Positions 16,969 to 64,000 of a stretch of 64,000 nt of DNA are shown here, one piece after another. The DNA comes from a virus, in the IMG/VR virus record IMGVR_UViG_3300047550_003635; one strand, 5' to 3'. Position 1 is the stretch's first letter; each line of letters begins with the position of its first letter. Under the pieces are notes generated by a model. It was not told the origin of the DNA and did not search any database. It saw only the letters and a list, made by a program, of their open reading frames with translations. Position numbers and translations under genes: made by a program.

Positions 16969-18003
16969 ATGCATAAAATTGACCAACAACTTGATTTAAT
17001 GATTCGTGGTAGATTCGAAGAAGGATGGAATCTCAGTCAGCAGATGGAACAAGAACATCCTGATGATTTGAGACATAAATTTAATCGTGCATGGTTTCTA
17101 ATCAATCAGGGCGATTTACAAACAGGATTTCAATTTTTAGAAGCAGGTAGATTTCTAAAAGTTTATGGTTCGCCTAAAATTCCTACAAATAAACCCATCT
17201 GGAATCAAACAGATGATTTAACAAACAAAATAGTAATATTAAATATGGAATGTGGTTTTGGTGACCAGATAATATCAGCAAGATTCGCTACTGAAGTTGC
17301 TAAGAGAGGCGGCAAAGCAATTCTGTGTTGTGAAGCTAGTTTACATCCTATTTTTTCAAGAATACCTGGAGTTCATCAATGTATTCAATTAAAAGATGTT
17401 CAATCAACAAAACATGATTATTGGATTCCTGGATTCAGTTGCAGTTGGATTTTTGGACACACATTTGATAATTTACCTAATTCTCCATACATATCAGCAA
17501 ATCCATTAAGTGTCGATGTTTGGAAAAATATAATTAAAAGTGATAAAATAAAAGTTGGTATTCGTTGGTCTGGTAGCCCATTATTTGAACATCAACAGTT
17601 TAGAATTTTTCCACCAGAACCGTTAATTGATTTGCATAAATATAAAGAAGTTCAATTTTATAGTTTACAGAGAGATACAGACACAAGAGAATTACCCAAT
17701 GAAATAATTGATTTGCAACATCTAATTATTTCATGGGAAGATACTGCTGCTGCAATTCATAATATGGATTTAGTGATTACATCATGCACAAGTATAGCAC
17801 ATTTATCTTCAGCGATGGGTAAACCAACATGGGTAATTGTTCCATTATTACCATATCATATTTGGGCTTATGGTGATAGACATTCTCCATGGTATCAAAA
17901 AACAACAAAAGTTTTTCGTCAAAAAGAATTTGGTAATTGGAATGCAACATTTGAATTATTAGAAAAAGAATTTGTCGAACATTTTAATTTGAAAAAGGAA
18001 TAA
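16969..18003 (+). CDS. Glycosyltransferase, TPR-associated GT9-like
   Basis: ECGFGDQI, KVGIRWSG, WEDTAAAI.NMDLVIT.CTSIAHL..AMGKPTW, WY....FRQ. Confidence 0.85.
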   Translation: MHKIDQQLDLMIRGRFEEGWNLSQQMEQEHPDDLRHKFNRAWFLINQGDLQTGFQFLEAGRFLKVYGSPKIPTNKPIWNQTDDLTNKIVILNMECGFGDQIISARFATEVAKRGGKAILCCEASLHPIFSRIPGVHQCIQLKDVQSTKHDYWIPGFSCSWIFGHTFDNLPNSPYISANPLSVDVWKNIIKSDKIKVGIRWSGSPLFEHQQFRIFPPEPLIDLHKYKEVQFYSLQRDTDTRELPNEIIDLQHLIISWEDTAAAIHNMDLVITSCTSIAHLSSAMGKPTWVIVPLLPYHIWAYGDRHSPWYQKTTKVFRQKEFGNWNATFELLEKEFVEHFNLKKE

Positions 18004-18006
18004 TTT

Positions 18007-18801
18007 ATGAGTGAATTATATTATGTTGCTGGACTCCCAAGGTCTGGTGCAACAATGATGATTAATATATTAAAACAAAATCCACAAATTCATGGCGAAG
18101 CAGTAAGTTCATTGAGTTCTATTTTTAGTTCTGTTTTTTTTAATTGGGACAAAATAGAATTTAGTATTGAATATAATAATGAAAAAGCCAAGATAAATGT
18201 TCTCAAAAGTATTTTAAATAGTTATCACTCACATCACCAAAAACAATTTATTTTTGATAAAGATAGAATGTGGATAACAAGAATTGGTATTCTAGAAGCA
18301 CTATTTGAGAAGAAAGTCAAGATTTTATGCCCGGTAAGAAATCCAGCAGAGATACTCGCATCATTTGAAAAGATAAGAAAAAATAATCCTCTGCAATTAA
18401 CGATGACGGATGAGATATTGGCAGAATCATCATCCATCGCATCTAGAGCATTTCATTACGCTGGTCCAAATGGTGCTTTAGGATTAGCACATGCAGGAAC
18501 ACGTGATGCTGTTACGATGGGATATTTGGACAGATTGTTGTTTATTGACTATAATAGATTTTGTAATAGTCCAAAAAGTCAGTTAAAACGAATATATGAT
18601 TTTTTTGAATTACCTTCTTTTGAGCATGATTTACAAAACATTGAGCAAACAGAAATTTACAATGATTTAGCATCAAAACTTCCTAATTTACATAAAATAA
18701 AACCTAAACTTGACAAAACAACTGTAAATTGTGTTGAATATTTGGGATTAGATTTATATCAACAATACAATCGTGAAATATTTTGGGATGCTTGGATATA
18801 A
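18007..18801 (+). CDS. Sulfotransferase
   Basis: 5'-PSB motif GLPRSGAT and 3'-PB motif RNP....ASF. Confidence 0.85.
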   Translation: MSELYYVAGLPRSGATMMINILKQNPQIHGEAVSSLSSIFSSVFFNWDKIEFSIEYNNEKAKINVLKSILNSYHSHHQKQFIFDKDRMWITRIGILEALFEKKVKILCPVRNPAEILASFEKIRKNNPLQLTMTDEILAESSSIASRAFHYAGPNGALGLAHAGTRDAVTMGYLDRLLFIDYNRFCNSPKSQLKRIYDFFELPSFEHDLQNIEQTEIYNDLASKLPNLHKIKPKLDKTTVNCVEYLGLDLYQQYNREIFWDAWI

Positions 18802-19536
18802 ATGTTTTTTATAGATAATCGTGTTCGTAGAAATGTTTTAGTTTCTACTGACCACGGAATGATGCTTGTAAACAGATTTGATTGTAATCATGAACAAGTT
18901 GGTCATGGTCAATGGCTATTAGACCATGGTAGCGCATCATCAGTTGAAGCGCAAGAGACTGTTTCATGTTTACAAAATATTTCAAGTCCTGTAATATTTG
19001 ATGTGGGTTCAAATATAGGAACATATTCAACATGGCTTACAAAAATATTACCGCAAAGCAAAATATATTGTTTTGAACCACAACGAATAGTTTTTCAAAT
19101 GTTATGTGCAAATATGATGTTAAATAATTTCGATAATTGTTTTGCACATAACATAGCAATTGGAAATAAAGATGATTTTATCGTTATTGACGAACCTGAT
19201 TATGAAAAGCCAGAAGATTTTGGTATTTTTAGTTTGGTTGAAGATAAAATTTTTAATAAATCAAATAAAAAAACAGTAATACCTATAATGAAAATTGATA
19301 CGTTTATTGAAACATATCATATTGAAAAATTAAATTTTATAAAAATAGATGTTGAAGGTATGGATATGGATGTTTTAAAAGGCGCACAAAAAACAATTCA
19401 AAAATATAATCCATTTATATTCATTGAACACTCAGACAATAGAAAATCAATATTAAATGAAATAACTGATTATTTGAGTTTAACTAAGTATGAATTTAAA
19501 GTAATTGGGAATAACGTTTTAGCAAAACCTAAATGA
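18802..19536 (+). CDS. FkbM-family methyltransferase
   Basis: FDVGSNIG, FEPQ, IKIDVEG. Confidence 0.9.
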   Translation: MFFIDNRVRRNVLVSTDHGMMLVNRFDCNHEQVGHGQWLLDHGSASSVEAQETVSCLQNISSPVIFDVGSNIGTYSTWLTKILPQSKIYCFEPQRIVFQMLCANMMLNNFDNCFAHNIAIGNKDDFIVIDEPDYEKPEDFGIFSLVEDKIFNKSNKKTVIPIMKIDTFIETYHIEKLNFIKIDVEGMDMDVLKGAQKTIQKYNPFIFIEHSDNRKSILNEITDYLSLTKYEFKVIGNNVLAKPK

Positions 19537-19546
19537 TGGAGATATA

Positions 19547-20155
19547 ATGATACCAGAACACACAAAATTAAATCTTGGTTGTGGATTTAAAAAATTAAAT
19601 GACCATTGGAATGTTGATGTTGAATCGAAATGTAATCCAGATGAAGTTGTTGATTTAGAAGTGACACCATGGCCATGGGCAGATAATTTTTTCGACAAAA
19701 TAAATGCTGATAATATTCTTGAGCATTTAGGGCAAAATCCAAAAGTATTTACTAATATAATGAAAGAAATGTATCGTATTAGTAAAGATGGTGCAACATG
19801 GTTTATAAATGTTCCTCATCATCGTTGTGATTTATACTGGGATGATTATACTCATGTAAGAATTTTGACACCAAAAACATTTAAAATGTTTGACCAAAAA
19901 ACAAATGTCGAATCGATTAAAAAGAAATTAAGTGATAGCGTTTTTGGTCTTGTTCATGATATTGATATTGAAGTTACTGATGTTTCATATAACATCGTAA
20001 ATTATTGGTTAAATCAGCAAGAAGATGGTATGCTTGCACCAAAACAATTAGACATAAATTTAAATACGCTGGCAAACGTTGCTGAATCTGTAAATATTTT
20101 TATTACTGTTCACAAACCAGGTAGACATTCTTCATTTTTACAGACTGGAAATTAA
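19547..20155 (+). CDS. Class I SAM-dependent methyltransferase-like protein
   Basis: KLNLGCG, DLEVTPWPW, ILEHL, D.TH. Confidence 0.8.
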   Translation: MIPEHTKLNLGCGFKKLNDHWNVDVESKCNPDEVVDLEVTPWPWADNFFDKINADNILEHLGQNPKVFTNIMKEMYRISKDGATWFINVPHHRCDLYWDDYTHVRILTPKTFKMFDQKTNVESIKKKLSDSVFGLVHDIDIEVTDVSYNIVNYWLNQQEDGMLAPKQLDINLNTLANVAESVNIFITVHKPGRHSSFLQTGN

Positions 20156-20156
20156 T

Positions 20157-21014
20157 ATGGCTATAAAAATTTTAATTATGGGTTTGCCTGGTTCAGGTAA
20201 AACAATCATGGCACAAGCATTAAAAAAGTATATTGAGAATAATCTATCATTCACAAATATGCCTGCTAATAAGTTACTGTCATTATCAGAATCATTTCCA
20301 TTAGAATATAAACCTAAAGTTAAATGGTTCAACGCAGATGATATTCGTAAAGAATATAATGATTGGGATTTTAGTAAAGAGGGAAGAATCAGACAAAGTT
20401 TAAGAATGGCAAAATTTGCTATAGAAAGTCTAGCAGATTATGCAATATGTGATTTTGTTGCGCCTTTAGGAGAAATGCGTAATAATTTTAAAGCGGACTG
20501 GACTATTTGGATGGATACCATTGATGAAGGACGATTTGAGGATACTAATAAAATGTTTGTTCCACCCACTGTTTATGATTTTCGTATAACCGAAAAAAAT
20601 GCTGATTTTTGGGCAAAATATGTTGGTGATAGAATCATTGCAGAAAAAAGACGACCTATATTTAATTGGCAAAAAGAAACTGTCCAAATGTTAGGTAGAT
20701 GGCAACCATGGCATAAAGGTCATCGTGCATTATTTGAGCGAGCAGTTGCTAAAACAGGTCAAGTTGTGATACAGATTCGTGATTGTCAAGGATGGAATAA
20801 ATCAAATCCATTTTCAATTGAACATGTAAAAAACATTATTAGAAAAGATTTGGACCCATTATATCAAGGACAATATGAAATTCAAATTGTTCCTAACATA
20901 GTCAATATAACTTATGGACGTGATGTTGGATATAAAATTGAGCAAGAAGTTTTTGATGAAGAAATACACAGTATATCAGCAACGCAAATTCGGAAAGAGA
21001 TGGGATTATCGTGA
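20157..21014 (+). CDS. APS kinase (CysC)-like P-loop domain fused to an HxGH nucleotidyltransferase domain
   Basis: GLPGSGKT, NADDIR, FS.EGR.RQ, CDFVAP; C-terminal GRWQPWHKGH and ISATQIR. Confidence 0.75.
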   Translation: MAIKILIMGLPGSGKTIMAQALKKYIENNLSFTNMPANKLLSLSESFPLEYKPKVKWFNADDIRKEYNDWDFSKEGRIRQSLRMAKFAIESLADYAICDFVAPLGEMRNNFKADWTIWMDTIDEGRFEDTNKMFVPPTVYDFRITEKNADFWAKYVGDRIIAEKRRPIFNWQKETVQMLGRWQPWHKGHRALFERAVAKTGQVVIQIRDCQGWNKSNPFSIEHVKNIIRKDLDPLYQGQYEIQIVPNIVNITYGRDVGYKIEQEVFDEEIHSISATQIRKEMGLS

Positions 21015-38805: not shown

Positions 38806-39882
38806 ATGAAAATTTGTATATTAGGCGACACGCACTTTGGAATGCGTGGTGATTCTCTTGAATTTCACCAGTATTGTTCCAAATTTTACACGAACGTATT
38901 TTTTCCGTATATATTGGAAAACAATATTGATACTGTTTTTCAATTGGGAGATTTGTTTGACCGCAGAAAATTCATAAATTTCCAGTCACTTTATTTGTGC
39001 CGTGAATATTTTTTTGATAAGTTGCGCGATAACAATATTAAATTCCATACGCTATTAGGCAATCATGATATTGCTTTTAAGAATACGTTGAAAGTAAATT
39101 CAACCAGTTTATTGTTGCAGGATTATAAGAACATTATCATTCATAATTCATTTGGCACTTTAGAATTTGATGATGTTCCTATTGATATTATTCCTTGGAT
39201 TTGTTCTGAAAACGAAGAATCAATTCTTGCTTCTATAAATCAATATAGTTCACCTGCACAGATTTGTTTTGGTCATTTTGAACTTGATGGATTTGAAATG
39301 GACCGTGGAAATATTTGTGTCGGTGGTATGAGTAAAAATATTCTAAAAAGATATGATGTAGTTCTGTCAGGTCATTTTCATCATAAATCAACGAATGATA
39401 ATATTCATTATGTTGGAACACCCAATGAAATGACATGGGCTGATTATAATGACCCTCGCGGATTTCATATCTTTGATACTGCAACAAGAGAATTAGAATT
39501 CATAGAAAATCCATATAGAATGTTTCATAAACTGTTTTATGATGATGGAAAAACAGATTTTGAATATTGGAAAAAGTTTAATTATGGGCAATTCAAAGAT
39601 ACTTATTTGAAAGTTATTGTAGTATCAAAACAAAATCCCTATTTGTTTGATAACATGCTGGATAATTTATATAAAGCCGGTGTAACAGATATCTCTATTG
39701 TTGAAGATTATTCTGATATTAATGTTGATATTGATGATGATATGGTAAATCAGGCTGAAGATACTATAACTGTTCTTTCAAACTATATCGATAATCTTCC
39801 CCTAGATGTAAATGGTGAAAAATTAAAATCATTAATGCGCGAACTATATGTTGAAGCGTCAAATATGGAAAGAGTTGAATGA
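38806..39882 (+). CDS. gp47: Recombination endonuclease subunit gp47 (Mre11-like)
   Basis: DTHFG, GDLFD, GNHD, GHFE, SGHFH. Confidence 0.96.
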   Translation: MKICILGDTHFGMRGDSLEFHQYCSKFYTNVFFPYILENNIDTVFQLGDLFDRRKFINFQSLYLCREYFFDKLRDNNIKFHTLLGNHDIAFKNTLKVNSTSLLLQDYKNIIIHNSFGTLEFDDVPIDIIPWICSENEESILASINQYSSPAQICFGHFELDGFEMDRGNICVGGMSKNILKRYDVVLSGHFHHKSTNDNIHYVGTPNEMTWADYNDPRGFHIFDTATRELEFIENPYRMFHKLFYDDGKTDFEYWKKFNYGQFKDTYLKVIVVSKQNPYLFDNMLDNLYKAGVTDISIVEDYSDINVDIDDDMVNQAEDTITVLSNYIDNLPLDVNGEKLKSLMRELYVEASNMERVE

Positions 39883-41591
39883 TTGTTTTTAGGACTATAC
39901 GCTGGAAAAATCTATTAAGCACTGGTAATACATTTACAGAGATTAAATTAGATTCTGCTGCAAATACACTTGTTGTTGGTAAAAATGGTTCAGGTAAAAG
40001 CACGATGCTTGATGCATTATGTTTTGGATTATTTGGCAAAGCATTTAGAAATGTGAATAAACCAAATCTACTGAATTCAATAAACGATAAAGATTGCCTT
40101 GTTGAAATTGAATTTGACAGCGAAGGTAAATCATATAAGGTTGTTCGTGGTATAAAACCTAATCTGTTTGAAATTTACTGTAATAAAAAACTATTGAATC
40201 AGGAAGCATCATCAAGAGATTATCAAGATTATTTTGAAAGATTCATTCTAAAGCTAAACTATAAATCTTTCACACAGATTGTTATTCTTGGTTCTGCTTC
40301 ATTTACTCCTTTTATGCAATTATCTGCTGCCGATAGGAGAGCAATTATTGAAGATTTGTTGGATATACAAATATTTTCAGTAATGAATAATCTTGTTAAA
40401 GACAGACTTTCAAACAATAAAGATTCTATCAGTTCAAAGAAATATGAAATAGAACTTGCACAACAGAAATATGATATTCATGAAAATCATATAAAAGAAA
40501 AGCAGCAAAATGTTGATGAAAGGATAAAACAGTATGATAGTGAGATATCAATCAGCCTCAATCTTATACAAGAAACACATGCCAAAAATTCCGACATCAC
40601 TGAAAAAACAAACGAAAAATTACAATCCATCAGTGATAAGGATGCAATATCGTCTAAACTCAAGAAGATTACAAAACTTGAATCGCAAATTGAAAGCAAC
40701 TTATCCAAATATAGAAAAGATATCAGTTTTTTTCAACATAATGACAATTGTCCAACCTGTAAGCAAGAAATTGCCTTGGGGTTTAAAGAACAAGAATTGC
40801 ATTCCTTATCAGAAAAGGTGGGAGAGTGTGAAAAAGGATTAAAAGAACTTGGTGAAAAAGTTTTAGATGAACAGAATAAACTGAATAATATTTCTGAAAT
40901 TCAAAAAGAAATACAAAAATTACAGATAGAATTAGCTACAAATCAAACATTGATTTCAGAAAATGAAAAATATATTGCCAAAGTTAAAAAGCAAATCGAT
41001 GAATTAAAAAATACCAACATTGCTTCCGAAAAAGATAAACAAGAATTAGTAAAAATGAAAGAGATTTTGACTAATCTTGAAAATGAATCCAAGAAATTGA
41101 TAGAAGAAAAGCAATATTATGAAGTAGCAACAACTTTACTGAAAGATACTGGCATTAAAACCAAAATCATCAAACAGTATCTTCCAATTATCAATAAACT
41201 TGTCAACAAATACTTGACTTCGCTCGATTTCTTTGTTAATATAAACTTAGATGAATCGTTTAAAGAGTCTATTAAATCACGACACAGGGATGAATTCTCT
41301 TATAACAATTTTTCTGAAGGTGAAAAACAGAGAATTGACATGGCTCTGATGTTGACATGGAGAGCAGTCGCAAAGTTAAAGAATTCTGCCAATACAAATT
41401 TGTTGATATTGGATGAAATATTTGATGCATCATTAGACGCAACAGGAACAGAAGAATTGATGAAGATTCTTCAATTGCTTGAGGGTGTAAATTTGTTTGT
41501 TATATCACATCGCGGTGATATTCTACAAGATAAATTTGCGAATGTAATTAAATTTGAAAAAATTAGAAACTTTTCAAGGATAGTAAAATGA
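39879..41591 (+). CDS. gp46: Recombination ATPase subunit gp46 (Rad50-like)
   Basis: GKNGSGKS, CPTC zinc hook, FSEGEK, LDEIFD, ISH. Confidence 0.97.
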   Translation: MIVFRTIRWKNLLSTGNTFTEIKLDSAANTLVVGKNGSGKSTMLDALCFGLFGKAFRNVNKPNLLNSINDKDCLVEIEFDSEGKSYKVVRGIKPNLFEIYCNKKLLNQEASSRDYQDYFERFILKLNYKSFTQIVILGSASFTPFMQLSAADRRAIIEDLLDIQIFSVMNNLVKDRLSNNKDSISSKKYEIELAQQKYDIHENHIKEKQQNVDERIKQYDSEISISLNLIQETHAKNSDITEKTNEKLQSISDKDAISSKLKKITKLESQIESNLSKYRKDISFFQHNDNCPTCKQEIALGFKEQELHSLSEKVGECEKGLKELGEKVLDEQNKLNNISEIQKEIQKLQIELATNQTLISENEKYIAKVKKQIDELKNTNIASEKDKQELVKMKEILTNLENESKKLIEEKQYYEVATTLLKDTGIKTKIIKQYLPIINKLVNKYLTSLDFFVNINLDESFKESIKSRHRDEFSYNNFSEGEKQRIDMALMLTWRAVAKLKNSANTNLLILDEIFDASLDATGTEELMKILQLLEGVNLFVISHRGDILQDKFANVIKFEKIRNFSRIVK

Positions 41592-42181
41592 GTGAAATTT
41601 TAACAATTAATACAGAAGCGGGTATTAAAACAGAAGAACAATATAAACCATTGCCATTGTATGATGAAACATTACCTATGTTGGAATCTGAAATTCCAAT
41701 GTATAATCTTCGTTTGCCAAATCCACAGATGACCAAACTCGTCAGTGAAATGAAAATGACGATGAAACAATTTGGTGGGATTGGTCTTTCAGCAAATCAA
41801 TGTGGTGTATATGAACGTGTTTTTGTTATTGGGACAGACCAGTTTCAGATTGCATGTATTAATCCAAAGATTATTGAATCATCTGATAACAAAATCAAAG
41901 CAGAAGAAGGTTGTCTTTCATATCCAGGTTTGTATTTAAAGATTGAACGCCCTGAATGGATTGTTGCAGAATTTACAGATGAAAATGGTGAAACGAAACA
42001 GATGCGATTTGATGGTGTTACTGCAAGATGTTATCAGCACGAATTGGACCATATGAATGGTAAAAAGTTTGTTGATTATGCAGGACCAGTAGCACTCCAT
42101 ATGGCAAGAAAGAAACAAAAGAAAATAGTCAAGAAAGTTTCGAGAAATAGTAAGAAAAATCTAGGAGCAATTTATGGCTGA
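41588..42181 (+). CDS. def: Peptide deformylase
   Basis: GIGLSANQ, EGCLS, QHELDH. Confidence 0.95.
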   Translation: MSEILTINTEAGIKTEEQYKPLPLYDETLPMLESEIPMYNLRLPNPQMTKLVSEMKMTMKQFGGIGLSANQCGVYERVFVIGTDQFQIACINPKIIESSDNKIKAEEGCLSYPGLYLKIERPEWIVAEFTDENGETKQMRFDGVTARCYQHELDHMNGKKFVDYAGPVALHMARKKQKKIVKKVSRNSKKNLGAIYG

Positions 42182-42473
42182 AAAAAATAAAGAAAAAAAT
42201 ATGATTTTTGATTTTATGGATTTAAACGATGAAGAACGTGATTTATTAATTAATGATGATAATGATTGGGAAAATCATTGGATTTCAATGCCTGAATTTG
42301 TTCAGGAAGATAATCCACCATTTAAAAAAATATTTGTGAGTTTTAGAAGTGAGAGTGATTATAATGAATTTGCTAAATTAATTGGACAAAATTTATCTGA
42401 AAAAACAAAATCTATTTGGTATCCAGTTTTAGACCGCGAAGCTAATTCATTATTGCGTTGGATTGAAGAATGA
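42174..42473 (+). CDS. Small acidic protein associated with GREB1/TAGT-like glycosyltransferases
   Basis: W..MPEF.QE...F....D...F...IGQ....KTKSIWYP pattern; overlaps both neighbours. Confidence 0.6.
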   Translation: MAEKNKEKNMIFDFMDLNDEERDLLINDDNDWENHWISMPEFVQEDNPPFKKIFVSFRSESDYNEFAKLIGQNLSEKTKSIWYPVLDREANSLLRWIEE

Positions 42474-43522
42474 TAGAACCAAAAATAATAATGCCTTTCT
42501 TATCACACCATCAAAATTATGGATTAATCAGTAATCAAATATTTGGGGGTATTGAACGATTTAAAAAACTTGTTTATGAACATATTCCAAATGTTTTACC
42601 TGTAGAAATAACAAAAGAACAAAGAAAGAAAAGAATTGGTAAAAGCATATTTCATTTTGAATATTGGCAATATCAGCCTGATATTATTTTTGTTAATGAT
42701 GCGTCAAAAGTTTTTAGTTCTGGATTGATTGATTATAATGTTCCTGTTGTATGGGTTTGTCATGAACCTTTAGAGAGAACTATCCAAAATATTGAAATGA
42801 TGAAAAGATTCAATCCATTTATTGATAGAGGTGGACATTTATATTTCGTATCTCAAATTCAGCATGAATTTTTTGACAATATGAGTAAAAGAATACTTGG
42901 ATATCCAATTAAAAATATAATGGGATATGTAAATCCATCATGTTGTTTAGGAACTGAACAGGTATATACAGGCAACAGAGAATATGATGCTGTAACTATA
43001 GGAAGAACAATACGAAGTAAAGACCCTTTTTGGTTGCATAGAAAACTGGAAAATACTAATTTGAAATCCGCAGTAATTACGGGAAAAATAAATTTACTCA
43101 AAAATGATAAAGAACATGAATATTTTAATTTTAATTACAAATGGGTAGAACCGAGATACACTTTTAGAGGATTATCACATGAAGAAACATTATATGAAAT
43201 GTCCAAAGGTGGCGTATTTGTTTCTACATGGGCATCTGAAAGTTGGGGGATTACTGCTTTAGAAGCATTAAGTTATGGTTTACCTCTATTACTAATTACA
43301 TCATCAATGAATAAACATGCTAGTCAATATATAGCAGGAAATGAAAATCATTTTAGGCATATAAAAAAAGGAATAAAATCAGAAAATTTATTGGATATAA
43401 TTAAAGAAATGAATACTATAAGTTTAGATGATAGAATGGAAATCGCTAAAATAACGCAAGAAAATCATAGCTTACAAAATTTTAAGAATATGATGAATTC
43501 AATTTTTAGAAAAGCATTATGA
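42470..43522 (+). CDS. GT-B glycosyltransferase (GT4-like)
   Basis: GGIERF, ESWGITALEALSYGLP (E-x7-E). Confidence 0.8.
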   Translation: MIEPKIIMPFLSHHQNYGLISNQIFGGIERFKKLVYEHIPNVLPVEITKEQRKKRIGKSIFHFEYWQYQPDIIFVNDASKVFSSGLIDYNVPVVWVCHEPLERTIQNIEMMKRFNPFIDRGGHLYFVSQIQHEFFDNMSKRILGYPIKNIMGYVNPSCCLGTEQVYTGNREYDAVTIGRTIRSKDPFWLHRKLENTNLKSAVITGKINLLKNDKEHEYFNFNYKWVEPRYTFRGLSHEETLYEMSKGGVFVSTWASESWGITALEALSYGLPLLLITSSMNKHASQYIAGNENHFRHIKKGIKSENLLDIIKEMNTISLDDRMEIAKITQENHSLQNFKNMMNSIFRKAL

Positions 43523-44403
43523 CAAATCCAATATATCCAATTTATATTCCTTCTAAAGGTCGTTATGAATCAATGATTACTTCAAAATCGTTGACTCGTA
43601 TGAAAGTTCCACATAATATTGTTGTAGAACCACAAGAGTTTGATGATTATAAAAAAGCCGTCAAAATTTTTAATTTGGAAAATTATGCAACAGTTTTAGA
43701 ATTACCTTTTAGTAATTTGGGTTTAGGTTCATATCCAGCCAGAAATTGGGCATGGGACCATTCTAAATCAATAGGTGCAAAAAAACATTGGTGCATAGAT
43801 GACAACATTTCAGATTTTTATAGGTTAAATAAAAATTTTAGAATTCGCGTAGAATCTGGTATTATTTTTAAAATAGCTGAAGATTTTGTTGATAGATATG
43901 ATAATGTTCCTGTATCTGGATTCAACTATAGATTTTTTATTGCACCAAATACAAAATATCCCCCATATTATTTAAATACGAAAGTTTACTCAACCATTTT
44001 AATTCAGAATGATTGTCCATATCGTTGGAGATTAAAATATAATGAAGATGTTGATTTGTGTTTACAAGTTTTAAAAGCTGGGTATTGCACAATTCAATTT
44101 AATGCGTTTCTTGCTGGTAAATGCGCGACACAGACAGTTGATGGTGGAAATACTGGAGAATTATATGGTAAAAAAGGAAATGTAAAAGACCCTAAAGGAA
44201 CACTACAAAAATCACAAATGTTAGTTGATTATCATCCTGATGTCGCTAAAGTCGTTTGGAAATACAATAGAGTTCATCATTATGTTGATTATCGTCCGTT
44301 TAAAAAAAATAAATTAAAATATAAAGATGATTTTATAAAACCTAAAAATATTATTAATAATTATGGAATGAAATTAATAACAAATTTTAAAAATACTATT
44401 TAA
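43519..44403 (+). CDS. GREB1/TET-associated (TAGT)-like GT-A glycosyltransferase
   Basis: [49 protein letters not shown]. Confidence 0.75.
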
Positions 44404-44424
44404 TTTATAGAGGAATATTTTATT

Positions 44425-45363
44425 ATGAAAAAAATATTAGTAACTGGTGGTTCGGGATTTTTAGGCAGCCATTTGTGTGAACGTTTATTAACAGAAGGAC
44501 ATCATATTTTATGTGTGGACAATTATTTTACAGGTTCAAGGACAAATATAAGTCATTTGTTAAATTATAAAAATTTTGAAATTATGAGACATGACATTTG
44601 TTTTCCTTTATATGTCGAAGTTGATGAAATTTATAATTTGGCATGTCCCGCAAGTCCAATCCACTATCAGTTGGATCCAATTCAAACTATGAAAACTAGT
44701 ATTTTAGGTGCATATAATTTATTAGGACTCGCTAAACGCACAAAAGCAAAAATTTTACAAACAAGCACTTCAGAAATTTATGGCAATCCTATAGAACATC
44801 CTCAATCAGAAGAATATTGGGGTAATGTTAACCCTATAGGAATTCGTAGTTGTTATGATGAGGGAAAACGTGCTGCCGAAACATTATTTATGGATTATAA
44901 TCGTATGCACAAAGTTGATATAAGAATAGCGAGGATTTTTAATACATACGGTCCAAAGATGTCAAAAAATGATGGTCGCGTTATTAGTAATTTTATTATA
45001 CAAGCATTAAATAATGAAAATATTACATTATATGGAAACGGTAATCAAACAAGGTCTTTTTGTTATGTTGATGATATGATTACAGCACTTATAACTCTTA
45101 TGAATACTAATATGCAATATGTTGGTCCTATTAATTTAGGTAATCCAGAAGAATTTACAATTTTAGAATTAGCTGAAAAAATCATCAAAATGACTAATTC
45201 CAAAAGTCAAATACAACAAAAAGAATTACCTAAAGATGACCCACAACAACGAAAACCTAATATAGAAAAAGCCAATAAAATTTTAAACTGGAATCCAAAA
45301 ATTGGATTAAACGAAGGTCTATTTAAAACAATAGAATATTTTAATAAAATCAACAACTTATAG
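44425..45363 (+). CDS. UDP-glucuronate decarboxylase (UDP-xylose synthase)
   Basis: [68 protein letters not shown]. Confidence 0.92.
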
Positions 45364-45367
45364 ACGC

Positions 45368-45396
45368 TTGACATTTATTCAACGGTTTGCTATAAT
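45368..45396 (+). promoter_or_regulatory. sigma70 consensus (early) promoter
   Basis: TTGACA-17-TATAAT. Confidence 0.88.
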
Positions 45397-45424: not shown

Positions 45425-47818
45425 ATGTTTACCGTTGAATCCAAATCGCAACTAGCCAAGCTGATGGCTACTGAAAATCTGATTATTCAGCACCAAAAAC
45501 TTCGCACAGCAAAATTTGACCCAGTTAATCGTATTTTGTATTTGCCCATTTGGCAAAACATGACTGGATTTGTTTATGACCTGCTTTGTGGTCATGAAGT
45601 CGGTCATGCACTTTATACTCCGCCACAAGGTTGGCATGATGCTGTTGTTGATAAATCTAAACCTAAATCATATAAACATTTTCTAAATGTTGTTGAGGAT
45701 GCTCGGATTGAAAAGAAAATCCAACGACGTTATCCTGGACTTCGGTCATGTTTTAAACAAGCATATGAAAAATTCTTTGATGAAGATTTTTTCGGTGTTG
45801 CTGGTCGCAATATTAACAATCTTCCTTTTATTGACCGTTTGAATCTTTTTACAAAAAGTCAATATACCAAAAATATTACGTTCAATGATGTTGAATTGGA
45901 TTTTATCAGTGAAGTTAAAAATGCTGAATCATGGGAAAACGTTGTTGATATTACTGATAGAATTTTTCAGTATTCTAAAAATGAACAATATGAATTAGAA
46001 CATCAAAACGATTTTTCTTTTTCGGATAATCAAACTTATGATGAATCTGGTGATGGTGACCCAGATGAATGTGATTTTGATGAAATTGAAGATGAAACTG
46101 AAAATTCAAGTGGCAAATCTAAAAAAGTTTCAAAACAGTCACAAGAAAAATCGGATGATGGTGATGAATCAGAAGAATCTGAAACACAATCTGGTAAATC
46201 CGACAAAGAATCTGATTCCGACAAATCTGAAGAAAAATCGGATGATAAGGAAAATGATAATAAATCAGATGATAAGAAAGAACATGATGATGAAAAATCG
46301 AATAGCATCAATCGTGATAAAGAATCTAATGAATCAGACCGTGACCAATTTGTTCCGAATTGTCAAACTGATGAAACATATCGTCAAAAAGAAAATCTTT
46401 TGCTTGATGTAAAATCAAAAGATTATCATTATATTAATATTCCAAAACCTATTCTTGAAGATATTGTGACCCCGTGGAAACGTGTGCAAGAACAGATGAC
46501 CGAACATTGGAATAAAGTTTTTGATATTAAAAATTATGATACTCAAGCTAAAAGATATTATTATCCAAAAGTTAATCCCACTGAATTGGTAAACAGTTTT
46601 AAACTGAAGAACGAGAAATATATCACACTTTTGGCTAAAGAATTTGAAATGCGAAAAGCTGCAAAATCTTATGCTAAAAATAAAATCTCAACAACGGGTG
46701 ATTTGAACATCAACAAACTCGCACAATACAAGGTTGATGATAATATCTTTCGGAAAATCATGACTGTTCCTAAAGGTAAAAAACATGGTCTAATATTGCT
46801 TCTGGATTATTCTGGTTCAATGAGTGATAAAATGGACGGCTCAATTGAACAGATTCTTGTTCTTGCGATGTTTTGTCGTAAAGTAAATATTCCTTTCCGT
46901 GTGTATGCTTTTGGTGATTCGGTAAAAGTATATTCTTTGGATAGAAATATTGTTAATAATCCGTTAGCAGCAAAAACATCCCGTCCTAATTGCAGTTGTT
47001 TCACTACAAATGCAGATGAATTGGCATTAAAAACTGTTCAATTGCGTGAATATTTGAACAACGAAATGACAAACTCTGAATTTACCAAAAGTGTTCGTAA
47101 TATGATTTTGTTGAAACAATCTTTTGATAGAAATAGCTATGGTGTTAATCAATTAGAAAAACCTAATAGTGAAGAATTGACTAATACCCCATTGATTCAA
47201 GGTATTTTTGCAATGACTGAAGTTATGAAACAATTTAAAAAAGTAAATAATTTGGATTTTACCAGTTTGATTATTGTGCATGATGGTGATGCTGATGCAA
47301 ATCCAAACTATTATGATGGACGTTATCATAATTCACAAACATATTTTAATGAAATCAAAGATAATGTAATTATTACTAATAAAAAGAGTAAATTCCAATA
47401 TCTTTTGAGGTCAGAAAAAACAAACAATAATCCATCATTGTTGACTGCTGCTTTGCGCTATTTCAGACATGAAACTAAATCTAAAATTTTTGGTTTCTTT
47501 ATTCTTGAAAATCGTTCATATGCTATAAAAAATAGTCTGTTTAGACGTTATCTGGATAAAAATGGTAATTCTGTCGATTATGATGCTATTAAAGACAAAA
47601 TAAAAGAACTTCGGTCAGAAAAATATTTGCAATCGAATATCGTCGGCTATGATGATTTCTATATGTTGTCGAATGACATTATTATTGATGATGAAGAATT
47701 GGAAATTGCTGAAACAGCATCACAGAAAACAATCATCAAAGCGTTCATCAAATTTAATAAAAAACGCCAAGTAAATCGTGTTCTCGTCAACAAGTTTATC
47801 CAAGGTATTGCTGCATAA
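45425..47818 (+). CDS. HExxH peptidase-like plus VWA protein ('CobT-like', MoxR partner)
   Basis: HEVGHAL, NVVEDARIE, acidic linker, MIDAS DYSGSM, TPL, HDGD. Confidence 0.85.
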   Translation: MFTVESKSQLAKLMATENLIIQHQKLRTAKFDPVNRILYLPIWQNMTGFVYDLLCGHEVGHALYTPPQGWHDAVVDKSKPKSYKHFLNVVEDARIEKKIQRRYPGLRSCFKQAYEKFFDEDFFGVAGRNINNLPFIDRLNLFTKSQYTKNITFNDVELDFISEVKNAESWENVVDITDRIFQYSKNEQYELEHQNDFSFSDNQTYDESGDGDPDECDFDEIEDETENSSGKSKKVSKQSQEKSDDGDESEESETQSGKSDKESDSDKSEEKSDDKENDNKSDDKKEHDDEKSNSINRDKESNESDRDQFVPNCQTDETYRQKENLLLDVKSKDYHYINIPKPILEDIVTPWKRVQEQMTEHWNKVFDIKNYDTQAKRYYYPKVNPTELVNSFKLKNEKYITLLAKEFEMRKAAKSYAKNKISTTGDLNINKLAQYKVDDNIFRKIMTVPKGKKHGLILLLDYSGSMSDKMDGSIEQILVLAMFCRKVNIPFRVYAFGDSVKVYSLDRNIVNNPLAAKTSRPNCSCFTTNADELALKTVQLREYLNNEMTNSEFTKSVRNMILLKQSFDRNSYGVNQLEKPNSEELTNTPLIQGIFAMTEVMKQFKKVNNLDFTSLIIVHDGDADANPNYYDGRYHNSQTYFNEIKDNVIITNKKSKFQYLLRSEKTNNNPSLLTAALRYFRHETKSKIFGFFILENRSYAIKNSLFRRYLDKNGNSVDYDAIKDKIKELRSEKYLQSNIVGYDDFYMLSNDIIIDDEELEIAETASQKTIIKAFIKFNKKRQVNRVLVNKFIQGIAA

Positions 47819-47832
47819 AGGGTTTTTATCGC

Positions 47833-47861
47833 TTGACATTTGGTGTATTTGGTAGTATAAT
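47833..47861 (+). promoter_or_regulatory. sigma70 consensus (early) promoter
   Basis: TTGACA-17-TATAAT. Confidence 0.88.
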
Positions 47862-47894
47862 ATTATTATATTGTGAATAAGGAGTTTTTATATT

Positions 47895-49082
47895 ATGAGT
47901 AGTCGTTCTGAAAAACGTGCTGATTTTTTCAAACATCTTGAATCAATTGGTAAGTCTACCGTTACAAAACAAGAAATTAATGAAATTTGTAAAAAGGTCG
48001 GCATTTCTTGTGCGCCATGGTTCACAAATGACCCAACGAATCGCGTATCACATGGAATTTATTGGGTGCCGTCAAATAAATCCGCTGAAACAATCAACAT
48101 GGAAGCACAGGTTATTCCTATTGAGAATAAAAAATTGACAGACAAAAAAATCAAAAATGTATCGACCGATTTGGAAGATGCAGACCTTGTTCCTAAAACA
48201 TATAAGAATTATGTGCCTTTTGGTAATTTTGATGATATTCTGTCAATCATCAAATCAAATCGGTTCTTTCCGACTTTTATTACGGGTCATTCTGGTAATG
48301 GTAAAACGATGTCAATTGAACAGGCTTGTGCAAAAGCAAAGCGCAAGTTTGTCTGTATTTCAATGACACCCGAAACTGATGAATCTGATTTGCTTGGTAA
48401 TTACGTTCTAATTGATGGTAATATGGAATGGCGTGATGGTCCTGTTACTATTGCTGCTCGTCAGGGTGCTGTTTTGTGTATTGACGAAATCGATTATGGT
48501 GCACAAAATCTTTCATGTCTCCAACGTGTCCTTGAAGGTAAACCGTTCATGCTGAAGAAAAAAGCTGAATTGGTTGTTCCCGCTGAAGGTTTTACAATCT
48601 TCGCTACTGCTAATACTAAAGGTAAAGGTAGTGAAGATGGTCGTTATATGTTTACCAACGTTTTGAATGAAGCGTTCCTTGAACGTTTTCGGAATACATA
48701 TGAACAAGATTGGCCGTCTAATACCGTTGAAAAGAAAATCATCAAGAAAGAATTGGAATCTGTTGGTCGTTCTGATGATGAATTTGCAGAAAATCTTGTC
48801 AATTGGGCAGATGCTATTCGTAAAACGTTTGCAGATGGTGGATGCGATGAATTGATTTCTACTCGCCGTCTTGTTCATATTGTCGAAACGCATGGTATTT
48901 TTAATAATAGAATGAAAGCGATTGGTCTATGTTTGAATCGGTTTGATGCTGATACCAAAATGTCGTTTCTTGATTTGTATACCAAGATTGATGTTAAAAC
49001 TAAAATGGACTCAGATTTAAATACAGTGACTACCGCTACTGATTCAAATATGAGTAATGTTTCTAATGAAGTGCCTTTTTAA
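47895..49082 (+). CDS. cobS: MoxR-type AAA+ ATPase ('CobS-like')
   Basis: GHSGNGKT, IDEID, ATANTKG, NEAFLERF, ISTRRL. Confidence 0.9.
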   Translation: MSSRSEKRADFFKHLESIGKSTVTKQEINEICKKVGISCAPWFTNDPTNRVSHGIYWVPSNKSAETINMEAQVIPIENKKLTDKKIKNVSTDLEDADLVPKTYKNYVPFGNFDDILSIIKSNRFFPTFITGHSGNGKTMSIEQACAKAKRKFVCISMTPETDESDLLGNYVLIDGNMEWRDGPVTIAARQGAVLCIDEIDYGAQNLSCLQRVLEGKPFMLKKKAELVVPAEGFTIFATANTKGKGSEDGRYMFTNVLNEAFLERFRNTYEQDWPSNTVEKKIIKKELESVGRSDDEFAENLVNWADAIRKTFADGGCDELISTRRLVHIVETHGIFNNRMKAIGLCLNRFDADTKMSFLDLYTKIDVKTKMDSDLNTVTTATDSNMSNVSNEVPF

Positions 49083-49554: not shown

Positions 49555-50370
49555 ATGGAAATACAAGTCAAAGTTGAAGAATTGAGAAAGAATAAAGTTT
49601 TCGTTGCTACACCCATGTATGGTGGAATGGCCCATGGTCTTTATGTAAAATCATGTCTTGACCTTCAGGGAACAATGAGCAAATATGGTGTTGATACCAA
49701 GTTCTCATTTCTTTTCAATGAATCTTTAATTACTCGCGCAAGAAATTATCTTGTTGACGAGTTCCTACGCACAGATTACACACACTTACTTTTTATTGAT
49801 TCTGATATTCATTATAATCCACAAGATGTTGTTGCATTACTTGCCTTGGATAAAGATGTTATCGGTGGACCTTATCCAAAAAAATCTATTAATTGGAATA
49901 ATGTTGCGATGGCAGCGAGAAGTCATCCCAAACTTGAACCAAAAGAATTGGAAACATTGGTTGGTGAATATGTTTTCAATATCGTAAAGGGAACACAATC
50001 ATTTCAAGTTACCGAACCTCTTGAAGTTATGGAAATTGGTACGGGATATATGTTGATTAAACGACATGTATTTGAAAAGATGGCAGAATCATATCCAAAT
50101 ATCAAATATAAACCTGACCATGTTGGGCAACAGCATTTTGATGGGTCACGTTATATTCATGCATATTTTGATACTGTTATTGATACCAAAGATTCAATGA
50201 CTGGTGGTGGTTCAGAACGTTATTTGTCTGAAGATTATATGTTCTGTCAGATGTGGCGCAAGATTGGTGGAAAAATCTTTTTGTGTCCATGGATGAAAAC
50301 ACAACATATCGGAACATATGCATTTACTGGTAATATGCCAGCAGTTGCAAACTATACAGGTAAGCTATGA
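49555..50370 (+). CDS. GT-A fold glycosyltransferase-like protein
   Basis: VATPMYGG, ESLITRARN, FIDSD (DxD), SEDYMFC, HIG. Confidence 0.7.
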   Translation: MEIQVKVEELRKNKVFVATPMYGGMAHGLYVKSCLDLQGTMSKYGVDTKFSFLFNESLITRARNYLVDEFLRTDYTHLLFIDSDIHYNPQDVVALLALDKDVIGGPYPKKSINWNNVAMAARSHPKLEPKELETLVGEYVFNIVKGTQSFQVTEPLEVMEIGTGYMLIKRHVFEKMAESYPNIKYKPDHVGQQHFDGSRYIHAYFDTVIDTKDSMTGGGSERYLSEDYMFCQMWRKIGGKIFLCPWMKTQHIGTYAFTGNMPAVANYTGKL

Positions 50371-63952: not shown

Positions 63953-64000
63953 ATGTTAAAATTAAAAGAACATATTATAAAAAATATAAGTGAAGAAAAA
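63953..64000 (+). CDS. Start of next ORF, truncated by window edge
   Basis: ATG at 63953; MLKLKEHIIKNISEEK open to the window end. Confidence 0.5.
   Translation, partial: MLKLKEHIIKNISEEK

Follow-up and report, generated by a model that had tools for sequence, protein, structure and literature searches.

The genes considered here lie in a 133,148-bp linear IMG/VR record from a T4-like phage, a freshwater virus of bacteria; the record is estimated to be 76% complete. The window, the 64,000-nucleotide stretch of DNA that was analyzed, contains a cassette of four plus-strand ORFs, SM, GT-B, TAGT, and UXS, at the coordinates given by an initial annotation made from the sequence alone. In order, the locus comprises:

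38806..42181, plus strand: genes 47, 46, and peptide deformylase (def), upstream, overlap-coupled to the cassette
42174..42473, plus strand: SM, small acidic partner (99 aa, pI 4.45)
42470..43522, plus strand: GT-B, GT4-like, in the variable slot between SM and TAGT (350 aa, E257-x7-E265)
43519..44403, plus strand: TAGT, a GT-A enzyme of an orphan clade (294 aa, pI 9.42)
44425..45363, plus strand: UXS, predicted UDP-glucuronate decarboxylase / UDP-xylose synthase (312 aa)
45368..45396, plus strand: sigma70-type promoter match TTGACA-17-TATAAT (12/12), just 3' of the UXS stop

Start and stop codons overlap along def, SM, GT-B, and TAGT. The TAGT stop and the UXS start are separated by 21 nt, with an AGAGGA ribosome site ahead of UXS and no standout promoter or terminator match between the two genes. 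The cassette closes the 47-46-def unit, of which UXS is probably the final gene because a perfect promoter match lies 3' of its stop; this match probably starts the next unit, vWA-AAA. Genes 47, 46, and def are context only, outside the proposed pathway. GC3 of the four cassette genes is 0.15-0.17, versus 0.22-0.29 in the flanks. The identical gene order is present on six further contigs (five Logan runs and one JGI sample), and the TAGT-UXS and UXS-vWA junctions are each bridged by contigs from other studies. Freshwater, reservoir, estuary, and sediment metagenomes also contain near-identical sequence, with no RNA dataset among those listed; the one possible RNA run for the locus is probably DNA. 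Further GT clusters lie elsewhere in the same genome.

All four gene identities in the initial annotation hold: a PF20691 enzyme (TAGT), a UXS1-type UXS, a GT4-like GT-B, and a small partner. The profile and structure check that it recommended for 43519-44403 returned PF20691 (E 6.1e-43; 147.6 bits versus a cut-off of 27.5), phrog_842 (1.5e-43), and a GT-A fold. The AF2 model (pLDDT 87.8) finds GT-A folds at Z 12-14, the best of which are generic GT-A enzymes, along with TAGT matches in BFVD. The TAGT motifs are R15, DDN (94-96), and NEDxD (175-179), and DDN plus NED[T/V]D occur in nearly all of 150 clade members. The 5hmC-acting GT-As and JGT carry R...DDD...ED[Y/F]; TAGT keeps R15 but not the remainder of this motif. 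As a family, TAGTs are basic (median pI 8.78, versus 5.8-6.2 for other phage GTs). As a post hoc lead, Val156 is present in all four UXS-adjacent TAGTs and in 16 of 150 overall.

SM matches no Pfam family, yet a profile search recovers it from 3,325 clusters formed at 50% identity. It is the constant companion of the orphan TAGT clade, and is fused N-terminally to TAGT in Aeh1, phage 65, PTm1, GD1, and Kuja; the window TAGT is ~50% identical to the Aeh1 SM-TAGT fusion. In many prophages, SM stands behind ParB_N in ParB_N-SM fusions. SM and TAGT are the conserved core. The predicted SM-TAGT complex scores 0.88, against 0.16 for the best control, where the mark used is passed by 58 of 80 solved pairs and 2 of 110 mismatched pairs; prediction runs have at least 72% of contacts in common, with a partner pLDDT of at least 71. 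Natural fusion outweighs the predicted complex as evidence, because fusion halves tend to pass. Together, the fusions and the modeled interface show SM and TAGT as a predicted single, two-chain glycosyltransferase.

This unit is what stays constant over ~300 loci. The usual T4-like layout is 46-def-SM-[slot]-TAGT-[slot]-vWA-AAA, and the slots contain GT-B, a second GT-A, class I or FkbM methyltransferases, CTP-transferase, epimerases, UDP-glucose dehydrogenase (UGD), or UXS. In T4-like phages the module falls between genes 46 and 45; in 33-37 kb phages it forms part of the replication region. Of 80 cellular loci, 27 have ParB-SM plus TAGT, and in the two inspected the pair immediately precedes terminase. 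Other settings include the space between portal and head genes in Vibrio phage 1.076.O and, in a Pantoea prophage, a position after other glycan-like genes. The module is accessory, since eight primase-selected relatives, one of them complete, are without TAGT. A search of nine SM-TAGT genomes for a hidden common gene found only SM/TAGT itself and terminase.

The window GT-B matches PF00534 weakly (1.1e-4, below the cut-off) and phrog_4356 at 1.5e-7, and E257-x7-E265 is invariant across 48 homologues. Its AF2 model (pLDDT 94.6) has a GT4-like GT-B fold, against which generic GT4 enzymes score best (Z 28); the HY126 phage GT ranks 18 (Z 25.6, rmsd 3.3, 321 aligned). The initial annotation likened this enzyme to T4 alpha-glucosyltransferase. 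The window enzyme has the GT-B fold too, shows no detectable sequence match to it (0.4 bits; beta-GT, -2.2 bits), and is encoded after 46/def rather than between 47 and 55. Neither T4 enzyme is among the top 50 listed fold matches, which excludes nothing. Among cultured phages, no match to GT-B was found. TAGT is nearby in 47 of 82 GT-B family loci; family members are overall not basic (median pI 6.59), and one, in another lineage, has as its neighbor a gp42-like gene (52-54% identity to T4 gp42).

UXS aligns full-length with human UXS1 at E 7.5e-120, 80 orders of magnitude stronger than the next family (7.5e-40), and its GxxGxxG, TSTSE, and YxxxK motifs are intact. On these grounds 44425-45363 is a predicted UDP-glucuronate decarboxylase / UDP-xylose synthase. 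UXS lies no more than two genes from TAGT in four loci: the window, L053, L289, and L300. In L053 (SM-SM-TAGT-GT-B-UXS-UGD-TAGT), UXS and UGD stand between GT-B and a second TAGT, which is 71% identical to the window TAGT and sister to its clade (support 0.98). L289 and L300 are unrelated phages; UXS and TAGT overlap in the former, and UGD is also nearby in the latter. A UXS tree, biased by the choice of hits, at most suggests that UXS was recruited separately. Elsewhere the two genes seldom share a genome: among 99 TAGT/GT-B records searched whole (5.4 Mb), a true UXS occurs in L053 only, and 29 UXS records (3.35 Mb) contain no TAGT. Every one of the four viral-type loci with both genes therefore has them within two genes of each other, for which the rough chance is 4e-4, the loci not being fully independent; L502, a bacterial MAG with UXS on the opposite strand and four genes away, was left out of this count. 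Because UXS lies within two genes of TAGT in four loci and is otherwise rarely co-resident with it, it probably feeds the cassette glycosyltransferases.

Of the first proposal that the phage makes its own pentose donor, it is supported that UXS probably supplies the transferases; the preceding enzyme was not found. Same-phage contigs (overlaps of 99.0% and 99.9%) added 9.3 kb and 8.2 kb to the record, giving ~151 kb of a genome that is not closed. A PF00984 search of the record found no UGD, nor do these extensions contain one, and UDP-glucuronate would therefore come from the host, or from an enzyme encoded in the genome gap.

A glycosyltransferase requires a nucleophile, and no acceptor-making gene is known for the cassette. 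The initial annotation postulated a hydroxymethylpyrimidine, correctly observed that the window encodes neither a hydroxymethylase nor a TET, and advised a search for these genes and for UGD elsewhere in the genome. None turned up: PF00303 and PF12851 profile searches of the phage's own record detected no hydroxymethylase and no TET, and the extensions, which carry genes for primase, ThyX, a PF13759 2OG oxygenase, NrdA/B, and small ORFs, contain no hydroxymethylase, TET, or UGD (~151 kb in all, with a gap left). The phage uses ThyX. The 2OG oxygenase gene lies between thyX and nrdA; neither G042 nor any of 79 primase relatives has a homologue of it beside thyX.

Other genomes tell the same story. 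Neither PF00303 nor PF12851 is present in the complete core-bearing genomes of G042 (149.6 kb, with terminal repeats and the same layout) and the 33-37 kb phages G054, G088, G089, G091, and G092. In G032, Aeh1, phage 65, and GD1, which are complete as well, the core is accompanied only by a canonical-type thymidylate synthase; PTm1 is the exception, with a second, divergent synthase. (A weak PF00303 match in Aeh1 is gene 47, not a synthase.) The TET positive control, P12024L, was detected at 2.8e-29, and the TAGT loci as a whole yielded one TET match, L512, although divergent dioxygenases could escape the profile. A gp42- or TET-made hydroxymethylpyrimidine, as a genome-wide base replacement, thus fails as the acceptor. 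Absence of any pathway to a hydroxylated base had been named beforehand as counting against the proposal, and it is largely what was found.

Restriction-site frequencies bear on the same point. GATC occurs 5 times in 133 kb versus ~450 expected (observed/expected 0.01; one of the five sites is inside the UXS gene), and GTAC has a ratio of 0.16. Observed versus expected counts are 0/43 for CTGCAG, 0/33 for TGCGCA, and 2/50 for AAGCTT, and CAGCTG and GAAGAC also are near zero. Among T4-like loci, a 4-bp palindrome falls below 0.2 in 71% of 58 with TAGT, 0 of 10 with a gp42-like gene, and 12% of 26 with UXS only, a comparison confounded by host and kinship among loci that are not independent. Relatives bearing gp42 avoid little: one of 16 loci has a site below 0.25. 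The T4 sample has a minimum of 0.35, versus 0.71-0.79 for G017 and G027; that T4 itself has GATC at 0.35 qualifies the comparison. Even so, the window phage has the site pattern expected when type II restriction enzymes can reach the DNA. With its sites purged in this way, genome-wide anti-restriction armour, the function first suggested for the cassette, is unlikely.

We tentatively favor sparse DNA xylosylation by the cassette, directed to an acceptor other than a base made by gp42 or TET. UXS would convert UDP-glucuronate, presumably from the host, to UDP-xylose. TAGT would then add the first sugar and GT-B the second, an order suggested by the constancy of TAGT and the variability of GT-B; xylose could be either the first or the second. 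The acceptor would be DNA, modified post-replicatively at a minority of sites. Candidate acceptors include a nitrogen or oxygen of a canonical base; a DNA end or phosphate; and a base oxidized by an unrecognized enzyme. Genes in the variable slots would diversify the glycan from phage to phage, and the modification may serve in packaging, regulation, or evasion of a non-type-II nuclease.

As the initial annotation supposed, DNA is the most likely target class: this reading draws on the enzyme family, the replication context, the ParB-SM fusions, the basic TAGT, and the GT-B relative beside a gp42-like gene. The TAGT/PF20691-type enzymes characterized so far have DNA sugars or 5hmC as substrates (PMC13216743; bioRxiv 2023.12.21.572611); in Pyle subclass II clusters, DNA glycosylation depended on donor enzymes encoded beside a GT (bioRxiv 2023.12.21.572611); and ParB partners activate phage DNA-modifying dioxygenases (PMC13229309). 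Counting against this reading are the generic GT-A and GT4 fold matches, the non-basic GT-B family, and a TAGT motif that departs from that of 5hmC-acting GT-As. The wider claim, that the very large partner-domain family glycosylates DNA without a hydroxymethyl or hydroxy precursor, such as straight onto a canonical base or at DNA ends, and that this phage makes the first xylose-bearing DNA from UDP-xylose of its own, appears doubtful, with the odds against it.

An acceptor that is a protein (of the virion, the packaging machinery, the host enzymes, or a defence system) or some other non-DNA molecule is the main rival, though somewhat less likely; this explanation retains weight because the case for DNA is contextual and because GREB1, a human family member, is reported to glycosylate a protein (PMC7968844). 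It would also accommodate a purge of restriction sites from DNA that behaves as unprotected, complete genomes devoid of a hydroxylated-base pathway, the portal/head setting in Vibrio phage 1.076.O, and the glycan-like neighbors in the Pantoea prophage. It fits poorly with the ParB fusions, the position in replication modules of unrelated phage groups, the basic TAGT, and the presence of GT-B in gp42-type clusters. LPS conversion in particular is disfavored, as the slots showed neither a flippase nor any other membrane partner. A quite different objection is that UXS is a passenger in an insertion-prone slot and serves other glycans, with SM-TAGT and GT-B drawing on UDP-glucose or another donor from the host. 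UXS does not adjoin TAGT in the closest TAGT relatives, L001 (84%), L222 (78%), and L002, and the genome holds other GT clusters that UXS might serve. Moreover, freshwater phages often carry UXS in other, unrelated glycan settings (none of the best 80 of 185 matches is near TAGT), and the window UXS is 70-75% identical to glycan-island UXSs versus 67% to that of L053, a comparison biased by the choice of hits. Against this stand the close spacing of UXS and TAGT in all four viral-type loci with both; the low GC3 common to the four cassette genes; the TAGT-UXS junction, free of standout promoter or terminator matches; and L053, whose sister TAGT is accompanied by UXS plus UGD. We judge the passenger explanation improbable.

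Least probable by far is the scheme closest to the original proposal, in which a gene in the genome gap provides hydroxymethyl-C or hydroxymethyl-U genome-wide, and xylose added to this base serves as anti-restriction armour. T2 and T6 do combine GT-B and TAGT on hmC, the gap is of uncertain size, and a PF13759 2OG oxygenase gene lies between thyX and nrdA. However, the use of ThyX, the lack of PF00303 and PF12851 genes in ~151 kb and in the complete core-bearing genomes, the purged sites (in relatives with gp42, avoidance is slight), and the lack of thyX-adjacent 2OG homologues in G042 or the 79 primase relatives all weigh against it.

To our knowledge, a hydroxylated pyrimidine is required in all characterized phage DNA glycosylation. 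The T-even (T2/T6) hmC system resembles the cassette in pairing GT-B with TAGT near 46/47 of a T4-like phage, and in the Pfam and PHROG assignment of the GT-A. It differs in that the window phage has no gp42, a GT4-like GT-B not detectably related to alpha-GT, a constant TAGT that needs a small partner, its own pentose donor, and purged restriction sites. The Pyle subclass I/II 5mYOX/TET clusters likewise contain two GTs, an adjacent SDR-type nucleotide-sugar enzyme, variable tailoring genes, and the GT-A fold; the present cassette lacks their TET and C5-methyltransferase and has DDN/NED[TV]D in place of DDD/ED[YF], and neither a pentose nor a decarboxylase is mentioned by Pyle et al. (bioRxiv 2023.12.21.572611). 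Because the acceptor-making genes of these systems are not found here, the cassette is grouped with neither.

The arabinosyl-5-hydroxycytosine systems (RB69, DLP3, HY126, Thanatos; PMC13326640, PMC12838424) share a phage-made pentose donor and GT-B transferases near 46/47, and the HY126 GT is among the GT-B fold matches. They depend on a hydroxylase of the thymidylate-synthase type and on an isomerase/kinase/nucleotidyltransferase route, whereas no PF00303 gene is found here. Pentosyl DNA is known, with arabinose as the sugar (PMC13326640). The Thanatos sugar was termed "putatively xylose", but UDP-xylose transfer was not seen, and PMC13326640 gives the DNA as arabinosylated. A UXS route for RB69 is speculation only. 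Our literature search found no confirmed xylosyl-DNA, nor xylose in phage DNA hypermodification.

Instead, the cassette belongs with the solitary (orphan) TAGTs, which were counted in 288 of 753 GT-encoding phages (PMC13216743). The Aeh1 fusion, for example, has the same clade and partner domain and no TET or gp42. (The Aeh1 glucosyltransferase ORF087c, listed with an "unknown base" in PMC8056088, may or may not be the SM-TAGT gene.) Unlike the Aeh1 fusion, the window cassette has its core split in two genes, with GT-B and UXS added, and thereby names a likely donor.

Orphan TAGTs are already a puzzle in the literature, and recent papers ask what their substrate is. What is new is the xylose route. 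The locus names a likely donor, UDP-xylose, whose +132 Da is easily traced, and identifies the partner subunit needed for reconstitution, while the cultured phages Aeh1 and 65 share the core. With donor, partner, and cultured carriers named, the question is directly testable. Whether the answer proves to be a DNA chemistry or a system for protein glycosylation, it would be new.

At TAGT residue 156 (window 43984-43986), valine replaces isoleucine in all four TAGTs adjacent to a UDP-xylose synthase gene, and in 16 of 150 overall. Singled out post hoc, Val156 is a lead for donor specificity.

Further features of this phage lie downstream of the cassette, elsewhere in its genome, and on two contigs extending past the record's ends (L517 and L609):
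Window 45425-49082: vWA-type protein (797 aa) and MoxR-like AAA ATPase, with a perfect sigma70 promoter match upstream.
Window 49555-50370: conserved GT-A (phrog_1574; weak Anp1 match).
Genome 111127-112811: GT2 and GalE-like pair.
L517 7147-7851: PF13759 2OG oxygenase, between thyX and nrdA.
L517 9668-10660: PstS-like phosphate-binding protein, flanked by nrdA and nrdB.
L609 2100-8150: several short repeat tracts among small ORFs.

A close homologue of the PF13759 oxygenase is absent from 79 primase relatives. Most relatives also have the conserved GT-A, placed ahead of dNMP kinase and gp45. Translated in one direction, the repeat tracts read as (RP)n; the opposite strand gives (SWSG)n. Separate clusters (window 16969-21014; genome beyond window position 64000) comprise, on the one hand, sulfotransferase/methyltransferase-like genes and, on the other, GT, radical SAM, and methyltransferase-like genes, all named by eye.

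Two features belong to other loci:
L106 7404-16254: gp42-type gene cluster (same kind also in L091, L101, L108, L110, and L116).
L477 5340-6864: ParB-SM and TAGT, in a prophage of cultured Pantoea stewartii.

The L106 cluster combines gp42-like, dCMP deaminase, and N6-methyltransferase genes and one further methyltransferase gene with sugar genes (UGD-like, the window's GT-B family, beta-GT-like), a phosphatase, an aGPT-Pplase-like gene, and, assigned by eye, an inositol-1-phosphate-synthase-like gene (431 aa). Clusters of this type possibly direct novel DNA hypermodification.

Many type II restriction sites are extremely depleted across the whole record (GATC, GTAC, CTGCAG, TGCGCA, AAGCTT, CAGCTG, GAAGAC, and CTCTTC); this avoidance pattern could be a clue to the phage's host. 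In the Pantoea prophage, terminase directly follows ParB-SM and TAGT. Phages Aeh1 and 65 provide cultured sources of the SM-TAGT core, usable to test it.
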